From Candidatus Yanofskybacteria bacterium (GTDB taxonomy: Bacteria > Patescibacteriota > Minisyncoccia > 2-02-FULL-40-12 > GWA2-44-9), in the NCBI GenBank assembly GCA_020847715.1, contig JADLBM010000021.1, positions 800 through 64,799 of the forward strand: 64,000 nucleotides of DNA, given 5' to 3'. Below, piece by piece: positions 1 through 58,729 of this stretch. The translations under genes and the position numbers were made by a program. The notes beneath the pieces were generated by a model. It was not told the origin of the DNA and searched no databases. It saw nothing but the letters and a program-made list of their open reading frames with translations. Every line of letters starts with the position of its first letter. Position 1 is the stretch's first letter.

Positions 1-520
1 CCATGCCCTCCCAGCTCGCGAACAACCGTAAACCCGTCGCGCTCGATGCGCGCCTGGATGGCGTGCCCAATGTCTCCCAGCGTGTTGCCCGGACGGCACT
101 GCGCGATACCGGCATCGAGCGCCTCCCGCGTCACCTGTATGAGCTTCCGCTTTCGCTCGTGCTCGGGCGCCGCCGGATTGCTCGCGACCAGCACGGTCAC
201 CGCCGAGTCCGACTGCCACCCGTCTTTGACCACGCCAAAGTCGAGCTTGAGGAGGTCCCCGTCGCGAAGTGCGTAGTCCGAGCCCGGCGTGTGAACCGCC
301 TGCGCATTCACGGAGAGACAAATCACATCGGGATAGTTATTGTAGTGCAAGAACGATGCCTCAACGCCATGCGCGCGAATGAGCGCGGCCGCGCGCGCGG
401 AAATCTCGCCCGTTGTCACGCCAACCTTCGGCATCGCCGAAAGCTCGCGCAATATCGCGGCGAGAATCGCGCCGCTCTGCCGCATTATTTCAACCTGTTG
501 AGGACTCTTCAGTGTAATCA
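1..520 (-). CDS. map: methionine aminopeptidase type I, N-terminal 173 aa (3' end runs off window)
   Basis: Reverse-complement translation starts MITLKSPQQVEIMRQSGAILAAIL with GHGIG-type continuation; ORF open to window edge; antisense of listed + ORF 3..830. Confidence 0.8.
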
Positions 521-1070: not shown

Positions 1071-1772
1071 CTACTGCCGCGGTGCGGGAGTGGTGCGCCG
1101 CTCCAGCGCGCCGACAACTTCCTGATGAATGGCCTGAATGCTCTGGCTAGCATCGATGGCAAAGATGGGGACACCGTTGGCGCGGAACGTGTTGAGTGTT
1201 GGCTCAGTGAGTTTTCGATACTCAGAAAACCGAGTACCCGTCTTGCTCGGATCGTCGAGCTCCCGCACATACAACTCACTGCCGTCTTTCGGACAGGTTG
1301 TGAGACTCGCAAACTCTGGCGTTGCCGGAATCGGATGGTTATGCGCACGACATAGGCGTCTCGTCGCGATACGACTGCTCGCGACCTCATCGGGAATGAC
1401 CAGATTAATAACCAGCACGCTGTCCGCGCCATACACCTTCACCATCTCCGGCACCTCGATTTCCGCTTCAAACACGGTGCGAGGAGAGCCGGAAAAGATG
1501 AGTCCCTTCCCCTGTGCAGCGACCGGTCGCACGAACTCCATCATGATTTCGGCAACGAACGGACCGGAGTTCAACTCTCCCGTGTCGAACTTCCGCTTCT
1601 CCTCACGAATGACGGGGTCGTCCGGATTTGCAGCGAACTTCGCAAGAATGAGCTTCGAGCTCGGAACCTGAATGAAACCAAACTCCTCGATGAGAAGTCC
1701 TGCTTGAGTGTCTTTCCCTGAGCCCGGCGCCCCGACGAAGAAGACTGCTTGTGGCCGTAGAGTTGCCTCCAT
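1071..1772 (-). CDS. adk: adenylate kinase
   Basis: VFFVGAPGSGKDTQA P-loop, LID region; ATG at 1772 chosen over the upstream TTG. Confidence 0.85.
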   Translation of the reverse strand: MEATLRPQAVFFVGAPGSGKDTQAGLLIEEFGFIQVPSSKLILAKFAANPDDPVIREEKRKFDTGELNSGPFVAEIMMEFVRPVAAQGKGLIFSGSPRTVFEAEIEVPEMVKVYGADSVLVINLVIPDEVASSRIATRRLCRAHNHPIPATPEFASLTTCPKDGSELYVRELDDPSKTGTRFSEYRKLTEPTLNTFRANGVPIFAIDASQSIQAIHQEVVGALERRTTPAPRQ

Positions 1773-1886: not shown

Positions 1887-2021
1887 GTCCGTAGACTCCC
1901 TCGTAAGGGTGGTGGGCCGGTGGCCCTTCCTTATTCTCCATCACGGGCGCCCCTCTGCGCCCTATCGTGTCTTCAATCCATTCTCCTCCTTCTTTGGCTG
2001 TGGGGGAGCGTCGGCGCTAGG

Positions 2022-2645
2022 CTACTTCTTCTTGCCCTTGCCGCCGCCCTTCTGCTTGTCCCCGCCCTTCTTGTTCTTCTTCTTGCCCCTGCCCTCCTCG
2101 GGCTTGGGGGCGCGGTGCTTGAGCGCCGCGGCCTCGCGCTGCTGGCGCCGCGAGAGCTTCTTGTGGTGGCGGCGCTCACGGTGGCCCTCGGCGAGGATCG
2201 CGTTGATGCCGCGGTCCTGGTTCGCGATGGCGAGCCCCAGCGAGCGCTGAGACCGGAACTGCTCGTCCCGAGTCTTGTTCTCCTGGACCCAGCGCTCCAT
2301 CAGGGCGATGGTGCCCTCGGTCCGGAAGGTCCTGAACCCCATCCGCTGCCCGCAGCGGCGGCAGAGCTCGGCCTTCAGGATCTCCTCGCGGGTGAGCGGC
2401 TTCGCCTTCATCTTCCTGCGAAGGTCCTCCCAGCTGAGCTGGTCCGCTCCTGCGAAGTCCGCGGGACGAGCCTGCTGGTAGAGCTTCTTGAGCTCGGGCA
2501 CGAAGCCCTCCCCCTGCCCGAACGACCAGCCACACCCCGTGCGGGAGCACTTCGCCATCTCGGCGACGCTCTCGGTGGAGGTGGAGGTCTGCGGAGCGCT
2601 GGTGGGCGCGACCGCGGGCGTGGAGATCGGGATGATGGTCGTCAT
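2022..2645 (-). CDS. hypothetical zinc-binding protein with lysine-rich histone-like C-terminal tail
   Basis: CSRTGCGW...CRRCGQ cysteine pairs; C-terminus KKKNKKGGDKQKGGGKGKKK; SD AGGGAGGAG 5 nt before ATG at 2645. Confidence 0.6.
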   Translation of the reverse strand: MTTIIPISTPAVAPTSAPQTSTSTESVAEMAKCSRTGCGWSFGQGEGFVPELKKLYQQARPADFAGADQLSWEDLRRKMKAKPLTREEILKAELCRRCGQRMGFRTFRTEGTIALMERWVQENKTRDEQFRSQRSLGLAIANQDRGINAILAEGHRERRHHKKLSRRQQREAAALKHRAPKPEEGRGKKKNKKGGDKQKGGGKGKKK

Positions 2646-3342: not shown

Positions 3343-3681
3343 TTACATGCCCTTTCCCAACTCGTATTCGTCGATAGCCGTTCGCAGATGCTCAATGTGG
3401 TTATTGAACTCCGCTTGGCTCAGAGCGCCGATGGACATGGTAGTCCGAGCGAGAAGCTCTATTCGCTTCCTGCACTCATCCGCGGTCCTCCATTCCGGCA
3501 AGGGCCGGCGTCCGAGCCCGACGATGTCGTACTCCTTGAGGCGAAGCTTGCGACCATCGGTCGTCTTGAGCGTGACCTCAGTCCCGCACAGCTCGACCCA
3601 CTCCACCTCAGCACGCGCCCCGCCAGAGATCAAAACAGAGTCCCCGGCACGCACATGCTTTGCGAAAATCGCCTTCAGCAT
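3343..3681 (-). CDS. hypothetical protein, paralog of 2836..3267
   Basis: 112 aa, MLKAIFAKHVRAGD ... IDEYELGKGM; TGTGGTATAGAA promoter-like motif about 70 nt upstream. Confidence 0.6.
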   Translation of the reverse strand: MLKAIFAKHVRAGDSVLISGGARAEVEWVELCGTEVTLKTTDGRKLRLKEYDIVGLGRRPLPEWRTADECRKRIELLARTTMSIGALSQAEFNNHIEHLRTAIDEYELGKGM

Positions 3682-3930
3682 CTCTCACCTCTCGAGAGCC
3701 AACGCGGCCCGAGATCCCGAGGCAGTACGCCGAGGGATACATTTCTATACCACAATCGGTATGTTTGTCGAGTCACACGGATTGAGGGGTTTCACCCAAG
3801 GCCGAGGCGTAAGCGAGCACCGGAGCGAGCCGTACTGAAGGGTACGGAGAGCGAGGAGCAGAGCGACAACGATGGGATTGGGTGAAATAACCAATCCAGA
3901 GCAAAGCAAAAGCCGCACCGAGGATTGTTG

Positions 3931-3964: not shown

Positions 3965-5224
3965 CTAGTACTCGTACAACGACAGCTGCGCCTGCACCTG
4001 CTTCATGATTTCGAGGGCGACCGACACCACAATCAGAATGGAGGTGCCACCAACGGTGAATGCGGTGATGCCTGTGAAGCCCTGCACGATGTTCGGAAGC
4101 ACTGCAATCGTCCCGAGGAACAACGCACCAACCAGTGTGACACGATTCAGGAGATGGTTCAGAAAACTTGCGGTCTGCTGGCCGGGACGAATGCCCGGAA
4201 TGTAGCCGCCCTGCTTCTGGATGTTCTCGCTGATACTCTTCGGATCGAAAGTAATAGCCGTGTAGAAGTAGGTGAAGAGCGCGACGAGTGTGAAATATAG
4301 AATGCCGTAGAACAGCTGGTTCTGGAGCGCATTACTCACCATGGTTGCCACACGAGCGACCGTCTGAACATGCGATGCGACGAAGAAGTTCGCGATGATG
4401 CCCGGGAACAAAAGGAGCGACAGCGCAAAGATAATGGGAATGACTCCGGCATTGTTCACGCGCATCGGAAGGTAGGTGCTCACGCCGCCGTACTGCCGCG
4501 CACCTCGCACGCGCCGCGCATAGTTGATGGGAATGTTGCGTTGCGCCTCGCTGATATAGACCACACCGGCGATGACTGCGAGTCCGACCACCACAAACGC
4601 GACGTAGGTGAACAGCTGATCAGCCGAGTAGGTGAAAATAGCCTGCTGGATTTGCTGTGGCACGCTCGCAACGATGCCCGTCAAGATAAGCAACGACGTG
4701 CCGTTGCCAAGATTCTTCTCAGAAATAAGCTCGCCCAGCCACATCAGGAACACCGAACCCGCGGCGATGATAGAGAGTGTGCCAAGCATCTGCATGCCAC
4801 CCATCGGGGCGAGGATATCCTGTCGCGTAAGAAGGACAAGGAAGCTGTACCCCTGCAGGAATGCCAACGGCACCGTCAGGAGGCGGCTATACTGGTTGAA
4901 CTTTGCGCGACCCTGCTCCCCTTCGTGCTTGTACATTTGCTCAAGCGACGGGAAAATCATGGTCAACAGCTGCATGATAATACTGCCCGTGATGTAGGGC
5001 CCGAGTCCGAGCATCGCAATAGAGAGCGTCGACAGCGAGCCGCCTGTGAAGGTGCTCACCAAACCGAACAGCGTGTTTTGGCTCAAGAAATCGCGGAGGC
5101 GTGATGCATCAACGGCCGGAATAGGCACATTGTGCAGCACCTGAGCGATAGCGGTCATCGCGAGGATGAAGAGGACCTTCGAGCGAAGCTCTTTGCGACG
5201 GAATATCTGGGTGATGTAATTCAT
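3965..5224 (-). CDS. secY: preprotein translocase subunit SecY
   Basis: 10 TM, MNYITQIFRRKELRSKVLFIL... SecY signature; start trimmed to the ATG after rplO stop. Confidence 0.92.
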   Translation of the reverse strand: MNYITQIFRRKELRSKVLFILAMTAIAQVLHNVPIPAVDASRLRDFLSQNTLFGLVSTFTGGSLSTLSIAMLGLGPYITGSIIMQLLTMIFPSLEQMYKHEGEQGRAKFNQYSRLLTVPLAFLQGYSFLVLLTRQDILAPMGGMQMLGTLSIIAAGSVFLMWLGELISEKNLGNGTSLLILTGIVASVPQQIQQAIFTYSADQLFTYVAFVVVGLAVIAGVVYISEAQRNIPINYARRVRGARQYGGVSTYLPMRVNNAGVIPIIFALSLLLFPGIIANFFVASHVQTVARVATMVSNALQNQLFYGILYFTLVALFTYFYTAITFDPKSISENIQKQGGYIPGIRPGQQTASFLNHLLNRVTLVGALFLGTIAVLPNIVQGFTGITAFTVGGTSILIVVSVALEIMKQVQAQLSLYEY

Positions 5225-17695: not shown

Positions 17696-18017
17696 GGACG
17701 AGCGGCCATTCGTTCGAAAGAAAAAGGCGGAAGTGTTTCCACTTCCGCCTAGACCCAGCTTCGGGCCCTGCTCTACCGCCAGTGCTTGGGGTTCTGGCAG
17801 TGCCCCTCACCCTTGAACCAGCAGTTGACGAAGTCGTCCTTCACGCACTTCAGGAACGTGATGAAACGCTCGCGCACGGCTTATATCCTCCTGACAGGAT
17901 TCCACATCCCGTCTGGAACCATGGTACACTATTTTATTGAATAAGTCAATACCCCAAAAGTCAATCCCCGCCCACGGGATGATTACTACCCATTATCCAC
18001 ATTGAGGGGAGAAAAAC

Positions 18018-18356
18018 ATGCTCGTACAATCTATGCGTACCAAGTGGGCGTTGAAAACGAAAGAGAGCCGCACGCGAATGCGACTCGGGAATTCTTTCGT
18101 GAAGCGAGGATTACTGCTTCTGGGAAGACACCAGAAGAATAGCACGCCTGACACCTGCGCAAAACAAAACTGTGCACATATGGCAATAAAAACCATAAGG
18201 CAAATACGGCCTGTCCGCCCAATCAAGCCGATTGAGCGGATGCAAAATATCCAGACACTCCCCCCGATTGGGGCGAGGAAATGGATACGGGCGCATTGGC
18301 GTTACGACTACATCTCCCGAAAATGGGAGTGGGTCTTAGGCCACTGGTCACGTTAA
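18018..18356 (+). CDS. hypothetical basic protein (112 aa), only plus-strand gene in the island, within the low-GC patch
   Basis: SD GAGGGGAG before ATG at 18018; followed by a perfect 13-bp hairpin at 18368..18398. Confidence 0.4.
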   Translation: MLVQSMRTKWALKTKESRTRMRLGNSFVKRGLLLLGRHQKNSTPDTCAKQNCAHMAIKTIRQIRPVRPIKPIERMQNIQTLPPIGARKWIRAHWRYDYISRKWEWVLGHWSR

Positions 18357-18367
18357 GCCCAGACAAC

Positions 18368-18398
18368 ATCACAAACAGCTCACCGAAGTGAGCTGTTT
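18368..18398 (+). terminator. perfect 13-bp stem hairpin (ACAAACAGCTCAC / GTGAGCTGTTTGT), likely terminator
   Basis: inverted repeat directly after stop of 18018..18356; weak T-run. Confidence 0.45.
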
Positions 18399-18463
18399 GT
18401 GTGCCACTATACTAGGATATCGCTTCAATGGTGGCGGGGATGTGGCAAGAGAGGGGGTGAAAT

Positions 18464-19027
18464 CTACTGACCATCGGTAGGGGCAGCTTTTGCTTTTTCC
18501 TGCTCATCAATGTCCTTCACGTTCCAGCCCTTGGTGGTGATGATTTTGTCTCGGAGGTAGATACCAAGCACTTCAGTAACATCACTGAACTCAAGACCTT
18601 CTTTGAAAAGGTAGTCCTTGATTGCCGTCATGCGGTCGTCTGCCTCAAGCGTAGCAATGACCTTCTTTGATGCTTCCTGTACATCGTAGGATGTCTTTAC
18701 ATTCTCGCCATCAACCTTGCTCAGAAGGTCGGTGATATTATCGTCAACAAACTTCCGACCACCGCTTTCGGTAAGCACTTTCTCTCCACGTTCCGTGAGG
18801 GAGATAGGGCTTTTCTTTTTCGTGAGAGGGCCTTGATTGTCTAGCATCGTCTCACACTTTATTGTTTTGTCGCGAATTTCTTTTACTTCCTTTTGCACCC
18901 CTTCAATATCCTTTTCGGCTCGGTCAACCTTAGACTTATATTGACCGATGGTGAATACGGCTGACAACCCACCGACGATTGCGGCAAGCAGGAGGTTTAC
19001 TATGAAGAAAATCATCTCTTTATCCAT
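18464..19027 (-). CDS. hypothetical N-terminally TM-anchored coiled-coil protein (about 187 aa) in low-GC patch
   Basis: MDKEMIFFIVNLLLAAIVGGLSAVF TM then charged coiled coil; local GC about 45% versus about 60% window average. Confidence 0.5.
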   Translation of the reverse strand: MDKEMIFFIVNLLLAAIVGGLSAVFTIGQYKSKVDRAEKDIEGVQKEVKEIRDKTIKCETMLDNQGPLTKKKSPISLTERGEKVLTESGGRKFVDDNITDLLSKVDGENVKTSYDVQEASKKVIATLEADDRMTAIKDYLFKEGLEFSDVTEVLGIYLRDKIITTKGWNVKDIDEQEKAKAAPTDGQ

Positions 19028-19247
19028 GAACGTATGGTACAAGATATTTGGGGTATTTGAAAGTATCATTCCGATGTTCATGTCTTAATTGCTGCCAGGG
19101 AGTACTCACCATATTTTTTTAGTCTGAGTGAGCGCTCGATCCAGTCACCCAGCGGCCCCGCGCTTGGCCGCAGATGAGGCGATGAAATCCGGCTTCGGCC
19201 CCGACGAGGTCCGAGCGATTTCCTTTCGTGCAGGTCGAGAGCTAGCG

Positions 19248-19649
19248 CTAGAAAGTATTTTCAAACTCTCCATCCTTGCAGAGCGCATTTTCCCGCCACC
19301 AGAAAGATAATCCTCCACCGTTCAAAGGGTAAAGTTCGTCACATTTCGCATCGCTTTTTGGTTTCGGGTCGCTATACCTGATGTAGCACGTGTCGTTTCC
19401 CTCGCCATACCGCCAACCCTTCACATTGCTCCACTTGGCACCCTCAGTCTTGTAAATCGCCAAGCAATCATTTCTTCTATCAGCAGCATATTTCTTATTA
19501 GCCTCTTCGCTCTTTCTATTTTGGTACCCCTGATACGAAGCAGAGGCGACGACTACCACTAGAAGTATTGATAGCAGTATGCCGACCCTAAACCAATTGT
19601 GACCCAGCCAGCGTAATGCGCGAGAAAGTATGCGTTTCATCATACCCAT
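19248..19649 (-). CDS. hypothetical TM-anchored secreted-domain protein with 4 Cys (133 aa)
   Basis: N-terminal TM VGILLSILLVVVVASA, then Cys-containing domain; lower GC. Confidence 0.45.
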   Translation of the reverse strand: MGMMKRILSRALRWLGHNWFRVGILLSILLVVVVASASYQGYQNRKSEEANKKYAADRRNDCLAIYKTEGAKWSNVKGWRYGEGNDTCYIRYSDPKPKSDAKCDELYPLNGGGLSFWWRENALCKDGEFENTF

Positions 19650-19805
19650 ATGTTACACCTACTGCCTTTCGCTACAATAGATTCGCGAGTCCGGATGCTC
19701 CGCGATGCGCGAGCGAGAAGCGCAGTGAGCCGTACTACCGATACGGCGAGCGCGCATCGCAGCGGCAACGAAGCGGGGCGCCGGAATCGCGAATCCCCCA
19801 GCAAA

Positions 19806-19835
19806 AGCAAAAGACCCCAAACGGGGTCTTTTGCT
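19806..19835. terminator. bidirectional rho-independent terminator (GACCCC-AAAC-GGGGTC flanked by T/A runs)
   Basis: terminates tuf-rpsJ transcript on minus strand; U-run present on both sides. Confidence 0.7.
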
Positions 19836-19892
19836 TTGCCATGAGTACTCGGTAACCCTTCGACTTCGCTCAGGGTAATTCGCCCTAGCGAA

Positions 19893-20219
19893 TTACATTT
19901 TGATTTCGATGTCGACGCCCGCAGGAAGTGCCAGATTGGTCAACGACTCGATAATCTTCGGAGTCGGACCGTGGATGTCGATGAGGCGCTTGTGGATGCG
20001 CATCTCGAACTGCTCACGGGAGTGCTTGTCGATGAACGACGCGCGGTTGACCGTGAACTTCGAGATTTCGGTCGGAAGGGGCACCGGACCTACCGGCTTG
20101 CCACCGTACCGCTCGATGGTATCCGCGATTTGCCGCGCCGACTTGTCGATGATTTTGTTGTCGTATGCGCGGAGCTTGATGCGGATGCGCTGCTCCTGTT
20201 TTTCGGTTTTCTTGGCCAT
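19893..20219 (-). CDS. rpsJ: 30S ribosomal protein S10
   Basis: [40 protein letters not shown]; its stop overlaps a 20-bp palindrome TAATTCGCCCTAGCGAATTA. Confidence 0.94.
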
Positions 20220-25985: not shown

Positions 25986-27230
25986 CTACTGACCTATGCA
26001 GACCCCGCGGAATAGATATACGTCATCAATAGCTTCAGTGCATTCATACCGACAAACGTAATCATCCACATTGCCGTCAAACGCGGCTCTGCAAACCATG
26101 CTTCTTCCCGTACACTGCGTCGGCGGCTGGTACGGGTAATTATATTTCATCGCTTGAGGGGAATTCAACCCGTAGAGGCAGAACGAGCTGGGGCCTACTC
26201 TTGCCGGATAAACACTTTCGCTCACCGTCAAGTCTTCGCCAAAAACTGCCACGACACGACCGCTTCCCCCCACATGATTCGGATATGACACTGCGGGACC
26301 CCCGATACCGCCGTACCCCGTGTATGGGGGATAGTAACCGGCAGAATAATCAACATCCGCCGTCCTCACCGGACTCCGCCCAGAAGCGGGAAAGGCCTGA
26401 AACACAACATCGTCTCGATATGACGGATTCACATATGCTGTGCCACCGCCTCCTCCACCTCCCATGCCATTCACATAGTTCGGATATCCGGAACCGAGCG
26501 ATCCGCCGCCTCCGCCGCCACCATACCCTTTTCCGCCACTACCGGCCAAATAGTACCCCAAATTTCCGCCGGTAAAGGAAAAGTTCGAACCACCTGCTTG
26601 ACCGGGCGATGTCCCAGACCCGCCTGCGCCACCAGCGTTCAGAGCGGCGCCAATACCACCGCCAGCGGTTTGCCCGCCTGCAACGCCATTCCTTCCATTA
26701 CCTCCCCCGGCAAAAGCACCACCTTCGCCACCGTGTCCAAGCTGAGTAAATCCTGCAACCGCACCTGCTCCACCTCCGCCGCCGGGAGCAACAACCATGT
26801 ACTGATTATGCCCATCGCTCCAGACATAGGAATAATGGCCTCCCCCACCGACGCTATACTGCTGCCCTCCGGCAAGAAGTCTGAGGGTCTCTCCGGGAGT
26901 AACGTTCAGCTCTGCGATAACATGTCCGCCTCCTCCACCATTAGCAGAATCTACAATGCCTACCAAACCGCTACCGACAGGAAAGTAGGTATTTCCACCG
27001 TCTCCCCACGCCTTAATCTTAATCTTTGTGCATCCTGCAGGAACCGTCACATCTATCCATGAGTGGCTTCCGTTATCATTCGGCACACCATTAATACTGT
27101 GCCGTGATACGGAGCACCCATCCGCCTTCACCACATCTGACGTGAATGCACCCAGCTGGAATGCCACGACACCGGCGATGAGAACGCCTAAACCAAGAAC
27201 ATACAGACCTTTTCGTACAAACAGTTTCAT
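25986..27230 (-). CDS. hypothetical glycine-rich secreted/cell-surface protein with Cys-rich C-terminal domain
   Basis: N-terminal TM/signal, long GGGGG/GxG low-complexity core, 8 Cys in last 70 aa. Confidence 0.6.
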   Translation of the reverse strand: MKLFVRKGLYVLGLGVLIAGVVAFQLGAFTSDVVKADGCSVSRHSINGVPNDNGSHSWIDVTVPAGCTKIKIKAWGDGGNTYFPVGSGLVGIVDSANGGGGGHVIAELNVTPGETLRLLAGGQQYSVGGGGHYSYVWSDGHNQYMVVAPGGGGGAGAVAGFTQLGHGGEGGAFAGGGNGRNGVAGGQTAGGGIGAALNAGGAGGSGTSPGQAGGSNFSFTGGNLGYYLAGSGGKGYGGGGGGGSLGSGYPNYVNGMGGGGGGGTAYVNPSYRDDVVFQAFPASGRSPVRTADVDYSAGYYPPYTGYGGIGGPAVSYPNHVGGSGRVVAVFGEDLTVSESVYPARVGPSSFCLYGLNSPQAMKYNYPYQPPTQCTGRSMVCRAAFDGNVDDYVCRYECTEAIDDVYLFRGVCIGQ

Positions 27231-27343
27231 AAAAAATACAACGCCTCCAAAGAGGCGCAAATAAAGTTACCTTTCATATGTATCGACCATTGCGACCATT
27301 ATACGCCCGATGATACGAGGGAAGTTGATAAGTCAAAAACGCC

Positions 27344-27654: not shown

Positions 27655-27741
27655 AACGAACCTCCGAGGAGAGTATGCCATGCCGTGCAAGAAAGACAAC
27701 AAACAAGAACGTGCCACTTGGCACGTTCTTGTTTGTGATTG

Positions 27742-27793
27742 TCGGGCTGCCGGGAATCGAACCTGCCTACCGGCAGGCAGGCCCGGTCTACAT
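27742..27793 (-). pseudogene. tRNA-Pro 3' fragment (positions about 41-73) carrying a 20-nt hairpin-forming insertion (27764..27783) between T-stem and T-loop
   Basis: identical to the intact tRNA from ATGTAGACCGGG to CAGCCCGA except for inserted GGCCTGCCTGCCGGTAGGCA. Confidence 0.7.
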
Positions 27794-27828
27794 TCGCTCC
27801 GCGACCTGGGAATCAGTCATCACCAATG

Positions 27829-27899
27829 TCGGGCTGCCGGGAATCGAACCCGGTCTACATGCACCCCATGCATGCGTACTACCGGTATACGACAGCCCG
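27829..27899 (-). tRNA. tRNA-Pro (anticodon GGG)
   Basis: hand-folded cloverleaf: acceptor CGGGCUG/CAGCCCG, D-stem GUAU/GUAC, anticodon stem CAUGC/GCAUG, loop AUGGGGU, T-arm CCGGG-TTCGATT-CCCGG, discriminator A. Confidence 0.8.
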
Positions 27900-27936
27900 A
27901 CATTAGTGACGACCGCTTTTCAATGCTCTGATTCCC

Positions 27937-27962
27937 GTTCGAGTGAAACCGTTCACTCGAAC
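27937..27962 (-). other. perfect 11-bp hairpin GTTCGAGTGAA-CGGT-TTCACTCGAAC abutting the 5' tRNA fragment
   Basis: begins at the nucleotide where the fragment diverges from the intact tRNA (position 38). Confidence 0.6.
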
Positions 27963-27998
27963 CCCCATGCATGCGTACTACCGGTATACGACAGCCCG
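27963..27998 (-). pseudogene. tRNA-Pro 5' fragment (positions 1-37, through the anticodon)
   Basis: 37/37 identity to the intact tRNA 5' half, then diverges. Confidence 0.75.
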
Positions 27999-28114
27999 AG
28001 TATCTGTTTTGCCGCGTCAGCATACCCTAGAATACGGTGAGAGTCCAGGAGCGCCCCTTTCTTTTTCCAGGCACCCGTGGCATCATGCGCCTGCTATTTC
28101 ACAAAGGAGAGATC

Positions 28115-58411: not shown

Positions 58412-58444
58412 AGTCTACGATACCTCGACAGATGTGGACCCAAC

Positions 58445-58518
58445 CGGATTCGAACCGGTGACCTCCTCATTGCAAATGAGGCGCTCTAGCCAGCTGAGCT
58501 ATGGGCCCAAAAACCAGA
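58445..58518 (-). tRNA. tRNA-Ala (anticodon TGC)
   Basis: GGGCCCA acceptor with G3:U70, loop TTTGCAA, T-arm ACCGG-TTCGAAT-CCGGT. Confidence 0.85.
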
Positions 58519-58573
58519 GTCTACCAGAAAAAGTTGCAGAATACCAGCTTTTGGGTTATGATTTCCCAGCTGC

Positions 58574-58645
58574 GGGCGACTAGTTCAGTGGTAGAACGCT
58601 GTCCTGATAAGACAGAGGTCGAAGGTTCGATTCCTTCGTCGCCCA
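58574..58645 (+). tRNA. tRNA-Ile (anticodon GAT)
   Basis: GGGCGAC acceptor, D-loop AGTGGTA, loop CTGATAA, T-arm GAAGG-TTCGATT-CCTTC. Confidence 0.85.
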
Positions 58646-58729
58646 CCCCAACGGAAACCGGCCAATGGCCGGTTTCCTGCAAAAAACCTTGCCAAAAACA
58701 CAACGGTATGGTAGGATTTCTGTACTGCT

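Follow-up and report, generated by a model that had tools for sequence, protein, structure and literature searches.

A resident tRNA-Pro gene in a metagenome-assembled Candidatus Yanofskybacteria genome is interrupted by one insertion of about 165 nt at position 37/38, the canonical intron position, and this insertion carries a whole replacement tRNA. The locus lies in a stretch of 64,000 nt that is called the window here. The nested layout is a conserved insertion that recurs in many related ultra-small bacteria, and it is not a random integrase scar. The inserted block belongs to a group of small tRNA-linked insertion elements that are common in Patescibacteria. Some of its relatives keep a GIY-YIG homing-endonuclease gene, and others keep only a replacement tRNA 3' end. 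On balance, the block is best read as a mobile, probably nuclease-driven tRNA-replacement cassette within a resident tRNA-Pro gene, from which one transcript would be made. The inner tRNA would be released from this transcript by RNases, and the helices around it would enforce its folding.

Layout of the Nested Locus

All parts of the locus are read from the minus strand, where they follow one another 5' to 3' in the order given below.

28019..28047, minus strand: promoter-like site 5' of the outer 5' half, with TGGACT (28047..28042), a 17-nt spacer and TATGCT (28024..28019)
27963..27999, minus strand: outer 5' half, base -1 and positions 1-37 of tRNA-Pro(GGG)
27937..27962, minus strand: hairpin h1, GTTCGAGTGAA-CGGT-TTCACTCGAAC, beginning directly after G37
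27928..27936, minus strand: GGGAATCAG, 5' strand of helix Pm, pairing with 27816..27808
27900..27927, minus strand: leader of the inner tRNA, of which 27912..27900 pairs with the trailer; the conserved TCGTCA lies within
27829..27899, minus strand: intact inner tRNA-Pro(GGG), found by ARAGORN and by Rfam (tRNA, 51.9 bits, full-length alignment)
27817..27828, minus strand: trailer strand, which together with A73 lengthens the inner acceptor stem by about 13 bp, 3 G·U pairs included
27808..27816, minus strand: CTGATTCCC, 3' strand of helix Pm, complement of GGGAATCAG
27791..27801, minus strand: CGGAGCGAATG, the conserved CGGA and then the degenerate 3' strand of the outer anticodon stem (GC[GA]ATG)
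27740..27790, minus strand: outer 3' half, consisting of TAGACCGGG, a 20-nt palindrome (27781..27762) and TTCGATTCCCGGCAGCCCGACA
27690..27736, minus strand: intrinsic terminator directly 3' of the outer 3' half, with a 17-bp stem and a T-rich tail

The first-pass annotation had described four minus-strand elements at this locus (a 5' half copy, a hairpin, an intact tRNA and a 3' half copy), and repeat search, ARAGORN and Rfam recovered all of them in place. The cloverleaf of the intact gene is also found by ARAGORN, and the Rfam tRNA score of 51.9 bits compares with a gathering score of 29. The inner tRNA passes as a functional bacterial tRNA-Pro, with a full cloverleaf, a GGG anticodon (NGG is required), G37, C1-G72, and A73. 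CCA is encoded by neither tRNA copy, nor is it encoded by the other two tRNAs of the window. The leader and trailer of the inner tRNA form a helix of 13 to 15 bp with three G·T wobbles, detected as an inverted repeat of 29 nt at 83%.

The outer 5' half spans the 5' strand of the acceptor stem, the D arm, the 5' strand of the anticodon stem, and the loop through G37. In the repeat search, 27999..27963 and the inner gene at 27900..27864 were identical at 37 of 37 bases. On the other side of the insertion, the repeat search showed 27763..27740 to match the tRNA 3' end exactly over 24 nt, and TAGACCGGG at 27790..27782 also matches the tRNA; the palindrome falls between the T-stem 5' strand and the T-loop of the outer copy. 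The breakpoints are located at 37/38 on the 5' side and at 38/39 on the 3' side, where positions 39-43 recur in mutated form after CGGA. Therefore, the locus is explained by a single insertion of about 165 nt rather than by two events. An insertion into a tRNA gene at the anticodon loop had already been suggested as the source of the partial copies, and this view stands, as does the placing of both breakpoints at that loop. The idea of two separate events does not, since the breakpoints mark either end of a single insertion with a complete tRNA inside. Judging from synteny with a relative (contig L251, below), the outer 5' half is most probably the 5' part of the resident gene. A simple tandem duplication was ruled out, as no resemblance to the inner leader is seen upstream of the outer copy.

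The outer copy departs from a functional tRNA in three ways, having about 165 nt inserted at 37/38, GC[GA]ATG as the 3' strand of its anticodon stem, and a palindrome in its T arm. With a broken anticodon stem and an interrupted T arm, it is not a decoding tRNA. This stem is broken differently in the window and in two loci of the same type, L054 and L092.

Folding of 27999..27740 gave a minimum free energy of -170.6 kcal/mol (z = -11.2 against shuffles). In the predicted fold, the inner cloverleaf sits on a long stalk within the anticodon arm of a second cloverleaf. This arrangement, the leader/trailer pairing and the pairing of GGGAATCAG with CTGATTCCC go beyond the first-pass annotation. h1 has an 11-bp stem without mismatch and a 4-nt loop. 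h1 and the 20-nt palindrome each occur once in the window, with 0 matches expected from shuffles.

A promoter may lie upstream of the outer 5' half. The promoter-like site there is weak, agreeing with the consensus at 8 of 12 positions and falling under the cut-off of the promoter scanner; its GTATGCTG box recurs at a similar upstream distance in L092 and L253. Nothing promoter-like was found in the GC-rich inner leader, and the only such box precedes the outer 5' half. The terminator is strong and is found only after the outer 3' half.

The neighboring genes are housekeeping genes, encoding S7, EF-G, EF-Tu, L4, ComEC, ribonucleotide reductase, HisRS, Pth, YbeY, and a proton-pumping pyrophosphatase. 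A Pfam search of 30 ORFs between 9.8 and 47 kb found no integrase, recombinase or endonuclease, which bears out the integrase absence noted at first sight, and tblastn with two GIY-YIG proteins found no GIY-YIG ORF in the window. Base composition around the locus is flat. In the Logan assemblies, contig L001 stops within the outer 5' half; assemblers break at this repeat.

Recurrence in Related Genomes

A metagenome scan with one exact pattern for the T arm and 3' end returned at least 120 tRNA-Pro loci, and the frequency of nests was estimated from these. Most of the 120 sampled loci are plain tRNA-Pro genes without a nest. Nests were found in 11 of them, or about 10% (L006, which has two, L007, L035, L037, L039, L045, L052, L054, L057, L092, and L104). 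They follow a common logic, in which an intact tRNA-Pro lies between the two complementary strands of a helix, with an outer 5' half before the first strand and an outer 3' half after the second. Minimum free energy folds reproduced the nesting in every locus tried, and L035 is a nest of three levels.

L054 and L092 have the same type of nest as the window (variant 1), which makes three loci of exactly this type among those found; L254 matches L092. The order in variant 1 is a 5' half running to ATGGGG, a perfect hairpin, GGGAAT..., a leader with TCGTCA, the tRNA, the trailer, ...ATTCCC, CGGAG..ATG, and the 3' half. This layout occurs in the separately assembled contigs L054, L092, and L254. 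h1 is homologous to the hairpins at the same site in L092 and L054, and the counterpart of CGGAGCGAATG before the outer 3' half is CGGAGCAATG in L054 and CGGAGGATG in L092. The nested tRNA-Pro family is defined here by the nest order together with the h1, GGGAAT, and CGGA modules, all of which are found in the window. Single modules also reach beyond the nests: GGGAATCAG corresponds to the GGGAATCGAA motif of tRNA-linked elements at other loci, where it comes after tRNAs, and a CGGA-type motif also follows GGGAATCGAAAGG in L114 and L119.

A second variant of the nest has a conserved GGG-TGAAGGT internal loop in place of the anticodon loop. Bulge-helix-bulge, kink-turn and loop-E readings of the TGAAGGT internal loop were tried by hand and none fits. 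Rebuilding the anticodon loop of this variant on the assumption of an insertion at 35/36 gave an 8-nt loop or the wrong anticodon.

Insertions in the outer copies are found at loops and junctions, not in stems. Hairpins of the form CCTGC...GCAGG, akin to the palindrome of the window, sit in outer-copy loops of L104, L109, and L052. Moreover, L052 and L092 have homologous hairpins at position 25/26 of their outer 5' halves. A scan of genomes recovered the 5' half in four Uhrbacteria and Doudnabacteria, once per locus and within a plain CCA-encoding tRNA-Pro. Tandem tRNA-Pro genes are common in the related genomes, and ARAGORN reports an 'intron' in L053. No nests were found in viral contigs with two pattern scans, which gave chance matches only and of which one used too loose a pattern.

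Relatedness to known RNA families was examined with Rfam, using gathering scores on the window and 18 related loci. The window region, four loci, and the L114 element were also searched with E-value limits of up to 10, 1, and 5. No family other than tRNA was found in the window, the related loci or the elements, and the remaining hits were chance microRNA-like matches. Introns of group I and of group II, known small ribozymes, and tmRNA were ruled out by these searches. For group I introns in particular, the window region and related loci gave no RF00028 hit with E-values up to 10, exon bases are absent from h1, and no P1 pairing could be drawn.

Covariation and Selection at the RNA Level

The spacer helices of variant 1 vary in sequence and keep their pairing. 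Counted on hand-defined helices (a MAFFT alignment of the three variant-1 loci left the trailer helices out of register), 5 of the 11 pairs of h1 were changed on both sides among the window, L054, and L092, with 0 of 33 cells unpaired. In helix Pm (GGGAAT/ATTCCC), 4 of 9 pairs were changed on both sides in the same loci and none was broken. Together, the two helices have 9 of 20 pairs doubly changed and 0 of 60 cells broken. Across 23 helices from all nests, 244 pairs are Watson-Crick, 8 are G·U, 1 is A·C, and 8 are other combinations. With 8 G·U to 1 A·C, the wobble bias indicates that selection acts on the tRNA-sense RNA rather than on a DNA palindrome.

A further comparison of the outer copy comes from the pair L045 and L057. 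Their flanking proteins are 53% and 68% identical and their spacers about 50%. The outer 5' part is 88% identical, and the outer 3' part, which holds about 170 nt of hairpin expansions, 92%. The inner tRNA is 100% identical, and the neighboring stand-alone tRNA-Pro only 84.5%. Within the expansion hairpins, compensatory changes from G-C to A-T were found. In this pair, the outer parts are more conserved than the neighboring real tRNA, which does not support the scar reading of the first-pass annotation. Going by this conservation, the outer copy would not be simply decaying either. For the window, where the outer halves do not differ from the inner gene, gene conversion could be a sufficient explanation of that identity.

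Empty and Alternative States at Syntenic Loci

On L251, the 310-aa gene that flanks the nest in the window is represented by P0003, a homologue of 33% identity with the same divergent placement. Beside P0003 lies a single uninterrupted tRNA-Pro(GGG), which differs by 1 base from the inner copy of the window, and neither half copies nor the hairpin are found on L251 at the syntenic locus. A single intact tRNA-Pro at this locus in a relative had been predicted at the outset. L251 is a distant relative (33% protein identity), so that the difference may in principle stem from a loss in L251 instead of a gain in the lineage of the window.

A closer comparison is offered by L092 and L253, whose flanking proteins are 71% identical. 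Their upstream regions agree at about 93%, the GTATGCTG box included. In L253, a 130-nt element comes after an intact tRNA; it starts with a similar hairpin and GGGAATCGAAGGG and ends in a tRNA 3'-end repeat bearing CCA and the terminator. L092 has a nest at the same place. Therefore, these loci change state between close relatives.

tRNA-Linked Elements and the Endonuclease Connection

The hairpin, GGGAATCGAARGG, and CGGAGCRATG modules are also found directly 3' of intact tRNAs for Pro, Arg, Gly, Ala, and Val. Such elements usually close with a direct repeat of the 3' end of their own tRNA, from the T-loop onward. In L006, a 25-nt 3'-end repeat follows tRNA-Arg, and a tRNA-Gly element likewise repeats the 3' end of its own tRNA. 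A tRNA-Val element is present in L057 and absent in its relative L045. Orphan 5' halves were found only for tRNA-Pro, in a sample that was selected for tRNA-Pro.

In L104, the insertion consists of a 36-nt spacer, an intact tRNA-Pro(GGG), and an 84-aa GIY-YIG ORF (PF01541, E = 2.7e-16). It is bounded by a 46-nt direct repeat within a hairpin-expanded tRNA-Pro-like gene, and the same 37-nt hairpin is found at two sites of this outer gene. An endonuclease ORF is thus present inside the inserted segment of L104 and absent from that of the window. In L109, L081, and L042, GIY-YIG ORFs lie within about 200 nt of tRNA-Pro.

Proposed Mechanism and Alternative Explanations

In the favored reading, the two outer halves would be the resident gene and would supply the promoter and terminator of a single transcription unit, and the inserted block would comprise h1, GGGAAT..., the leader, the tRNA, the trailer, ...ATTCCC, and CGGA. 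The primary transcript is predicted to fold into one cloverleaf that is set in the anticodon arm of another. The inner tRNA, which would be the only decoding copy, would be released by RNase P and RNase Z together with the CCA-adding enzyme, and RNase III may first cut the leader/trailer stalk of roughly 22 bp. The spacer helices may have been selected because they keep the inner tRNA from pairing wrongly with the outer halves, which have the same sequence. The nest would have originated by nuclease- or recombinase-driven insertion of a cassette, with the endonuclease gene later lost in this genome. What is shown here is the DNA architecture, its recurrence, the pairing and its covariation, and the empty site; transcription, processing and the mode of insertion are predictions.

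Several points stand against this cassette reading, including the weak promoter match, the small number of variant-1 loci (three), and the distance of L251. An endonuclease or recombinase is absent from the window, so the mechanism of mobility draws on 4 of the 120 related loci. The inner copy, being identical, should likewise be a target of a homing endonuclease. Finally, the conservation of about 170 nt between L045 and L057 exceeds what an 'insulator' would need and hints at a function of the outer RNA. A second account, the main rival, takes up such a function, treating the composite itself as a functional RNA whose outer tRNA-like frame has its own role and whose nesting is maintained by selection instead of being a by-product of insertion. 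After excision by RNase P and RNase Z, the outer frame would persist in two pieces or re-ligated. One ground for it is the same pair of loci, where the outer parts and their expansions are 88-92% identical despite diverged flanks and spacers and where the expansion hairpins carry compensatory changes. The restriction of outer-copy insertions to loops and junctions, the homologous hairpin at 25/26 in L052 and L092, and the wobble bias toward RNA-level selection agree with it. However, the outer anticodon stem decays differently in each variant-1 locus, the arrangement differs between the close relatives L092 and L253, the nest is absent from most tRNA-Pro loci, and gene conversion alone would explain the identity of outer and inner copies in the window; as a whole this account appears rather unlikely. 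An undescribed Patescibacteria class of 'tRNA-within-tRNA' genes, in which a mobile cassette carries a replacement tRNA that is cut out by the usual tRNA-end enzymes, a tRNA thus acting as its own protein-processed 'intron', and the outer frame is kept as a functional two-piece tRNA-like RNA, is put forward tentatively, as something possible but not probable.

At first, the partial copies had been proposed to be attL/attR-type scars of tyrosine-integrase elements at the anticodon loop, with either a decayed island or repeated cycles of integration and excision behind them. The 3' copy does begin at the anticodon stem, a classical crossover sublocation, a single tRNA is found at the syntenic site in L251, and related loci have true 3'-end repeats from the T-loop onward that bound small elements, the displaced copy in L253 retaining CCA and the terminator. 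The geometry is nevertheless that of something else: the 5' half is also duplicated, which integration is not known to do, and the junctions have no duplicated core sequence. The segments that would be the islands measure 63 and 36 nt, are mutually complementary, and are conserved with covariation. Instead of being spacers of a decayed island, they are structured modules common to other Patescibacteria loci, where pairing is kept via compensatory changes. An integrase domain was found neither in the 30 ORFs around the locus nor beside nests elsewhere, and the only mobility gene found with nests encodes a GIY-YIG endonuclease in place of the integrase envisaged. No instance was found in the viral contigs covered by the two pattern scans (one pattern being too loose). 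Overall, an integrase scar is improbable. Still harder to sustain is a local accident, either the decay of a tandem tRNA-Pro array in which the first gene lost its 3' half and the third its 5' half, or an artefact of assembly. Tandem tRNA-Pro genes are common in these genomes and a Logan contig (L001) breaks inside the outer 5' half, but neither the leader/trailer and Pm complementarity nor the h1, GGGAAT, and CGGAG modules would be expected from decay, the inner leader has no counterpart upstream of the outer copy, and the same layout is present in the separately assembled L054, L092, and L254. These observations make an accident very improbable. A true intron, in which the block of about 165 nt would be spliced out by a bulge-helix-bulge or self-splicing route and the outer halves joined into a second functional tRNA-Pro, has the least probability of all. 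It would suit the interruption at exactly 37/38, the complementary sequences that bring the halves together, the 'intron' called by ARAGORN in L053, and the richness of Patescibacteria in tRNA introns (PMC13011429). Nonetheless, no bulge-helix-bulge could be drawn at the junctions by manual threading of the window, L037, and L039, and no group I, group II or ribozyme family of Rfam matched even at E up to 10. Furthermore, all three variant-1 loci have mismatches in the outer anticodon stem, the T arm of the window has a 20-nt insert, and the second variant yields no NGG anticodon loop.

Significance of Nested tRNA Genes

No description of nested tRNA genes was found in the literature searched. 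To our knowledge, self-splicing introns are the only known kind of disruption in bacterial tRNA genes. Disrupted tRNA genes, whether by introns, splitting or permutation, are central to ideas on tRNA evolution. If the cassette reading is true, the nests would be a new bacterial gene architecture, present at maybe one tenth of the sampled tRNA-Pro loci in a very large phylum and passed over by standard tRNA finders. They would also represent a new way for an insertion element to neutralize its own damage. Moreover, nests would let one observe, in a natural setting, how RNase P and RNase Z deal with identical half-molecules that compete. On the practical side, the repeats break assemblies, and ARAGORN reported the inner gene only, so annotation misses the outer halves.

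Comparison With Known Systems

Tyrosine-integrase elements target tRNA genes and leave attL and attR sites behind, and their crossovers reportedly fall into anticodon-loop and T-loop sublocations. The hallmark of an att scar is duplication of a 3' segment of the tRNA alone, with the resulting direct repeat bounding the cargo; we know of no tRNA-targeting integrase that produces copies of the 5' half. The nests resemble these integrative elements in that the insertion is bounded by partial tRNA copies, a tRNA borne on the element restores function, the breakpoint is in the anticodon loop, and repeats from the T-loop to the 3' end are found at related loci. They differ in having no integrase and a length of only about 165 nt, in duplicating the 5' half, in carrying a whole tRNA, and in the conserved RNA helices of their spacers.

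Free-standing GIY-YIG homing endonucleases are found in tRNA clusters, an example being SegB of phage T4. Similarly, GIY-YIG ORFs lie by or inside tRNA-Pro nests (L104, L109, L081, and L042), and in L104 the tRNA and the endonuclease form one repeat-flanked cassette. In contrast to the SegB type, the endonuclease gene is absent from the window, and classic intronless homing is not known to leave nested half genes.

In archaea, disrupted tRNAs include those with bulge-helix-bulge introns at 37/38 and the split tRNAs of Nanoarchaeum. A bulge-helix-bulge consists of two 3-nt bulges separated by a 4-bp helix. The nests share with these genes the interruption at 37/38 and the bringing together of the halves by complementary flanks. 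Unlike them, they are bacterial, have no bulge-helix-bulge, and have a degenerate outer anticodon stem, and the intervening sequence is itself a tRNA.

Group I introns have been described in Patescibacteria genes for tRNA-Asn and for tRNA-Asp, with no mention of tRNA-Pro or of nesting (PMC13011429). The nests have in common with these introns the phylum, the kind of host gene, insertion at the anticodon loop, and being missed by standard annotation. They lack a group I core, an Rfam match, and a P1 pairing with the 5' exon.

The predicted RNA also recalls the processing stalks of rRNA operons and the engineered 'tRNA scaffolds'. It differs from both in that a tRNA is the guest and is hosted by the frame of a broken copy of itself, with processing being predicted here. 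As in the stalks, a long leader/trailer helix loops out the mature RNA, and as in the scaffolds, the anticodon arm of a tRNA frame hosts an RNA that can be processed by tRNA enzymes.

Nested tRNA Loci on Other Contigs

Some of the related loci are more elaborate than a single intact tRNA inside one broken copy. A three-level nest was found in contig L035 (946..1300), in which an intact tRNA-Pro(CGG) is innermost and lies inside two differing outer tRNA-Pro(TGG)-like frames. Each of the two outer frames has a separate leader/trailer helix, and the three-level arrangement was recovered in the minimum-free-energy fold. In L054 (656..1025), a nest of the window's own type, the 5' half together with its hairpin and its leader forms an exact tandem repeat of 100 nt with two copies, and the unit of trailer plus CGGAGCAATG is likewise doubled. 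These doubled units could reflect either a second insertion or an unequal crossing-over in which the repeated halves recombined.

Conservation was also compared between related pairs of contigs. The hairpin "expansions" of the outer 3' half (~170 nt) share 92% identity between the nests of L045 (1230..1790) and L057 (2800..3560), compared with only 84.5% for the stand-alone tRNA-Pro(GGG) beside these nests; the proteins of the two contigs are 53-68% identical. L092, another nest of the window's type, and its relative L253, which carries an intact tRNA, share ~110 nt of promoter-bearing intergenic DNA upstream (1132..1245 and 3630..3740, respectively) at ~93% identity, and their flank proteins are 71% identical. 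For non-coding DNA, the upstream region of this pair is unusually conserved.

Inserted Hairpins and Partial Copies

A 37-nt hairpin, CCGCCTGYGGCTTCGCCACGAAGCGGCAGGCC, is present twice within one tRNA-like gene of L104 (780..816 and 1299..1335), a nest with a GIY-YIG ORF inside; the two insertions are in the D-loop and in the 3' strand of the T-stem. Hairpins of the form CCTGC...GCAGG were also seen in the window (27781..27762), L109, and L052, and together with those of L104 they may constitute a small family of palindromic repeats. In two other contigs, L081 (8240..8360) and L042 (minus strand, 4860..4980), a mini-hairpin, GGGCTGTAGCCC, lies between a GIY-YIG ORF and tRNA-Pro. It consists of the acceptor stem alone, and a copy of the tRNA leader comes after it in inverted orientation.

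Structured elements were also found beside tRNAs other than tRNA-Pro. In L006 (13268..13698, minus strand), a ~170-nt structured element 3' of tRNA-Arg(TCG) is bounded by a 25-nt direct repeat comprising the 3' end of the tRNA and 8 downstream bases; a similar element is located 3' of tRNA-Gly(GCC), ~400 nt away. The tRNA-Pro of L053 (minus strand, ~1945..2080 in reverse-complement coordinates) has a first 3' half with an aberrant T-loop (AGCATTA) and, 21 nt past it, a canonical second 3' half that runs from the anticodon loop onward. ARAGORN called a tRNA here and assigned it an intron of 60 nt.

Only one other contig, L001 (Logan assembly, SRR11294031), encodes the exact 310-aa flank protein of the window, and its terminus (1..30) falls within the outer 5' half. 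Short-read assemblies appear to break at the nest repeat.

Other Features of the Window

Features elsewhere in the window
25986..27260, minus strand: 424-aa glycine-rich protein with a hydrophobic N-terminal segment, adjoining the nested locus
within 58434..58647, minus strand: tRNA-Ala(TGC)
within 58434..58647, plus strand: tRNA-Ile(GAT)

The sole match of the 424-aa protein was a weak one to Gly_rich_2. GC content falls to 0.50 at 18001..20000, compared with ~0.58 in the rest of the window, and the two ORFs of this stretch (18464-19081 and 19248-19649) had no Pfam match. The tRNA-Ala(TGC) and tRNA-Ile(GAT) genes are divergently oriented with a gap of 66 nt. No rRNA genes were found within the 64-kb window holding this pair, the usual place of which is the 16S-23S spacer.
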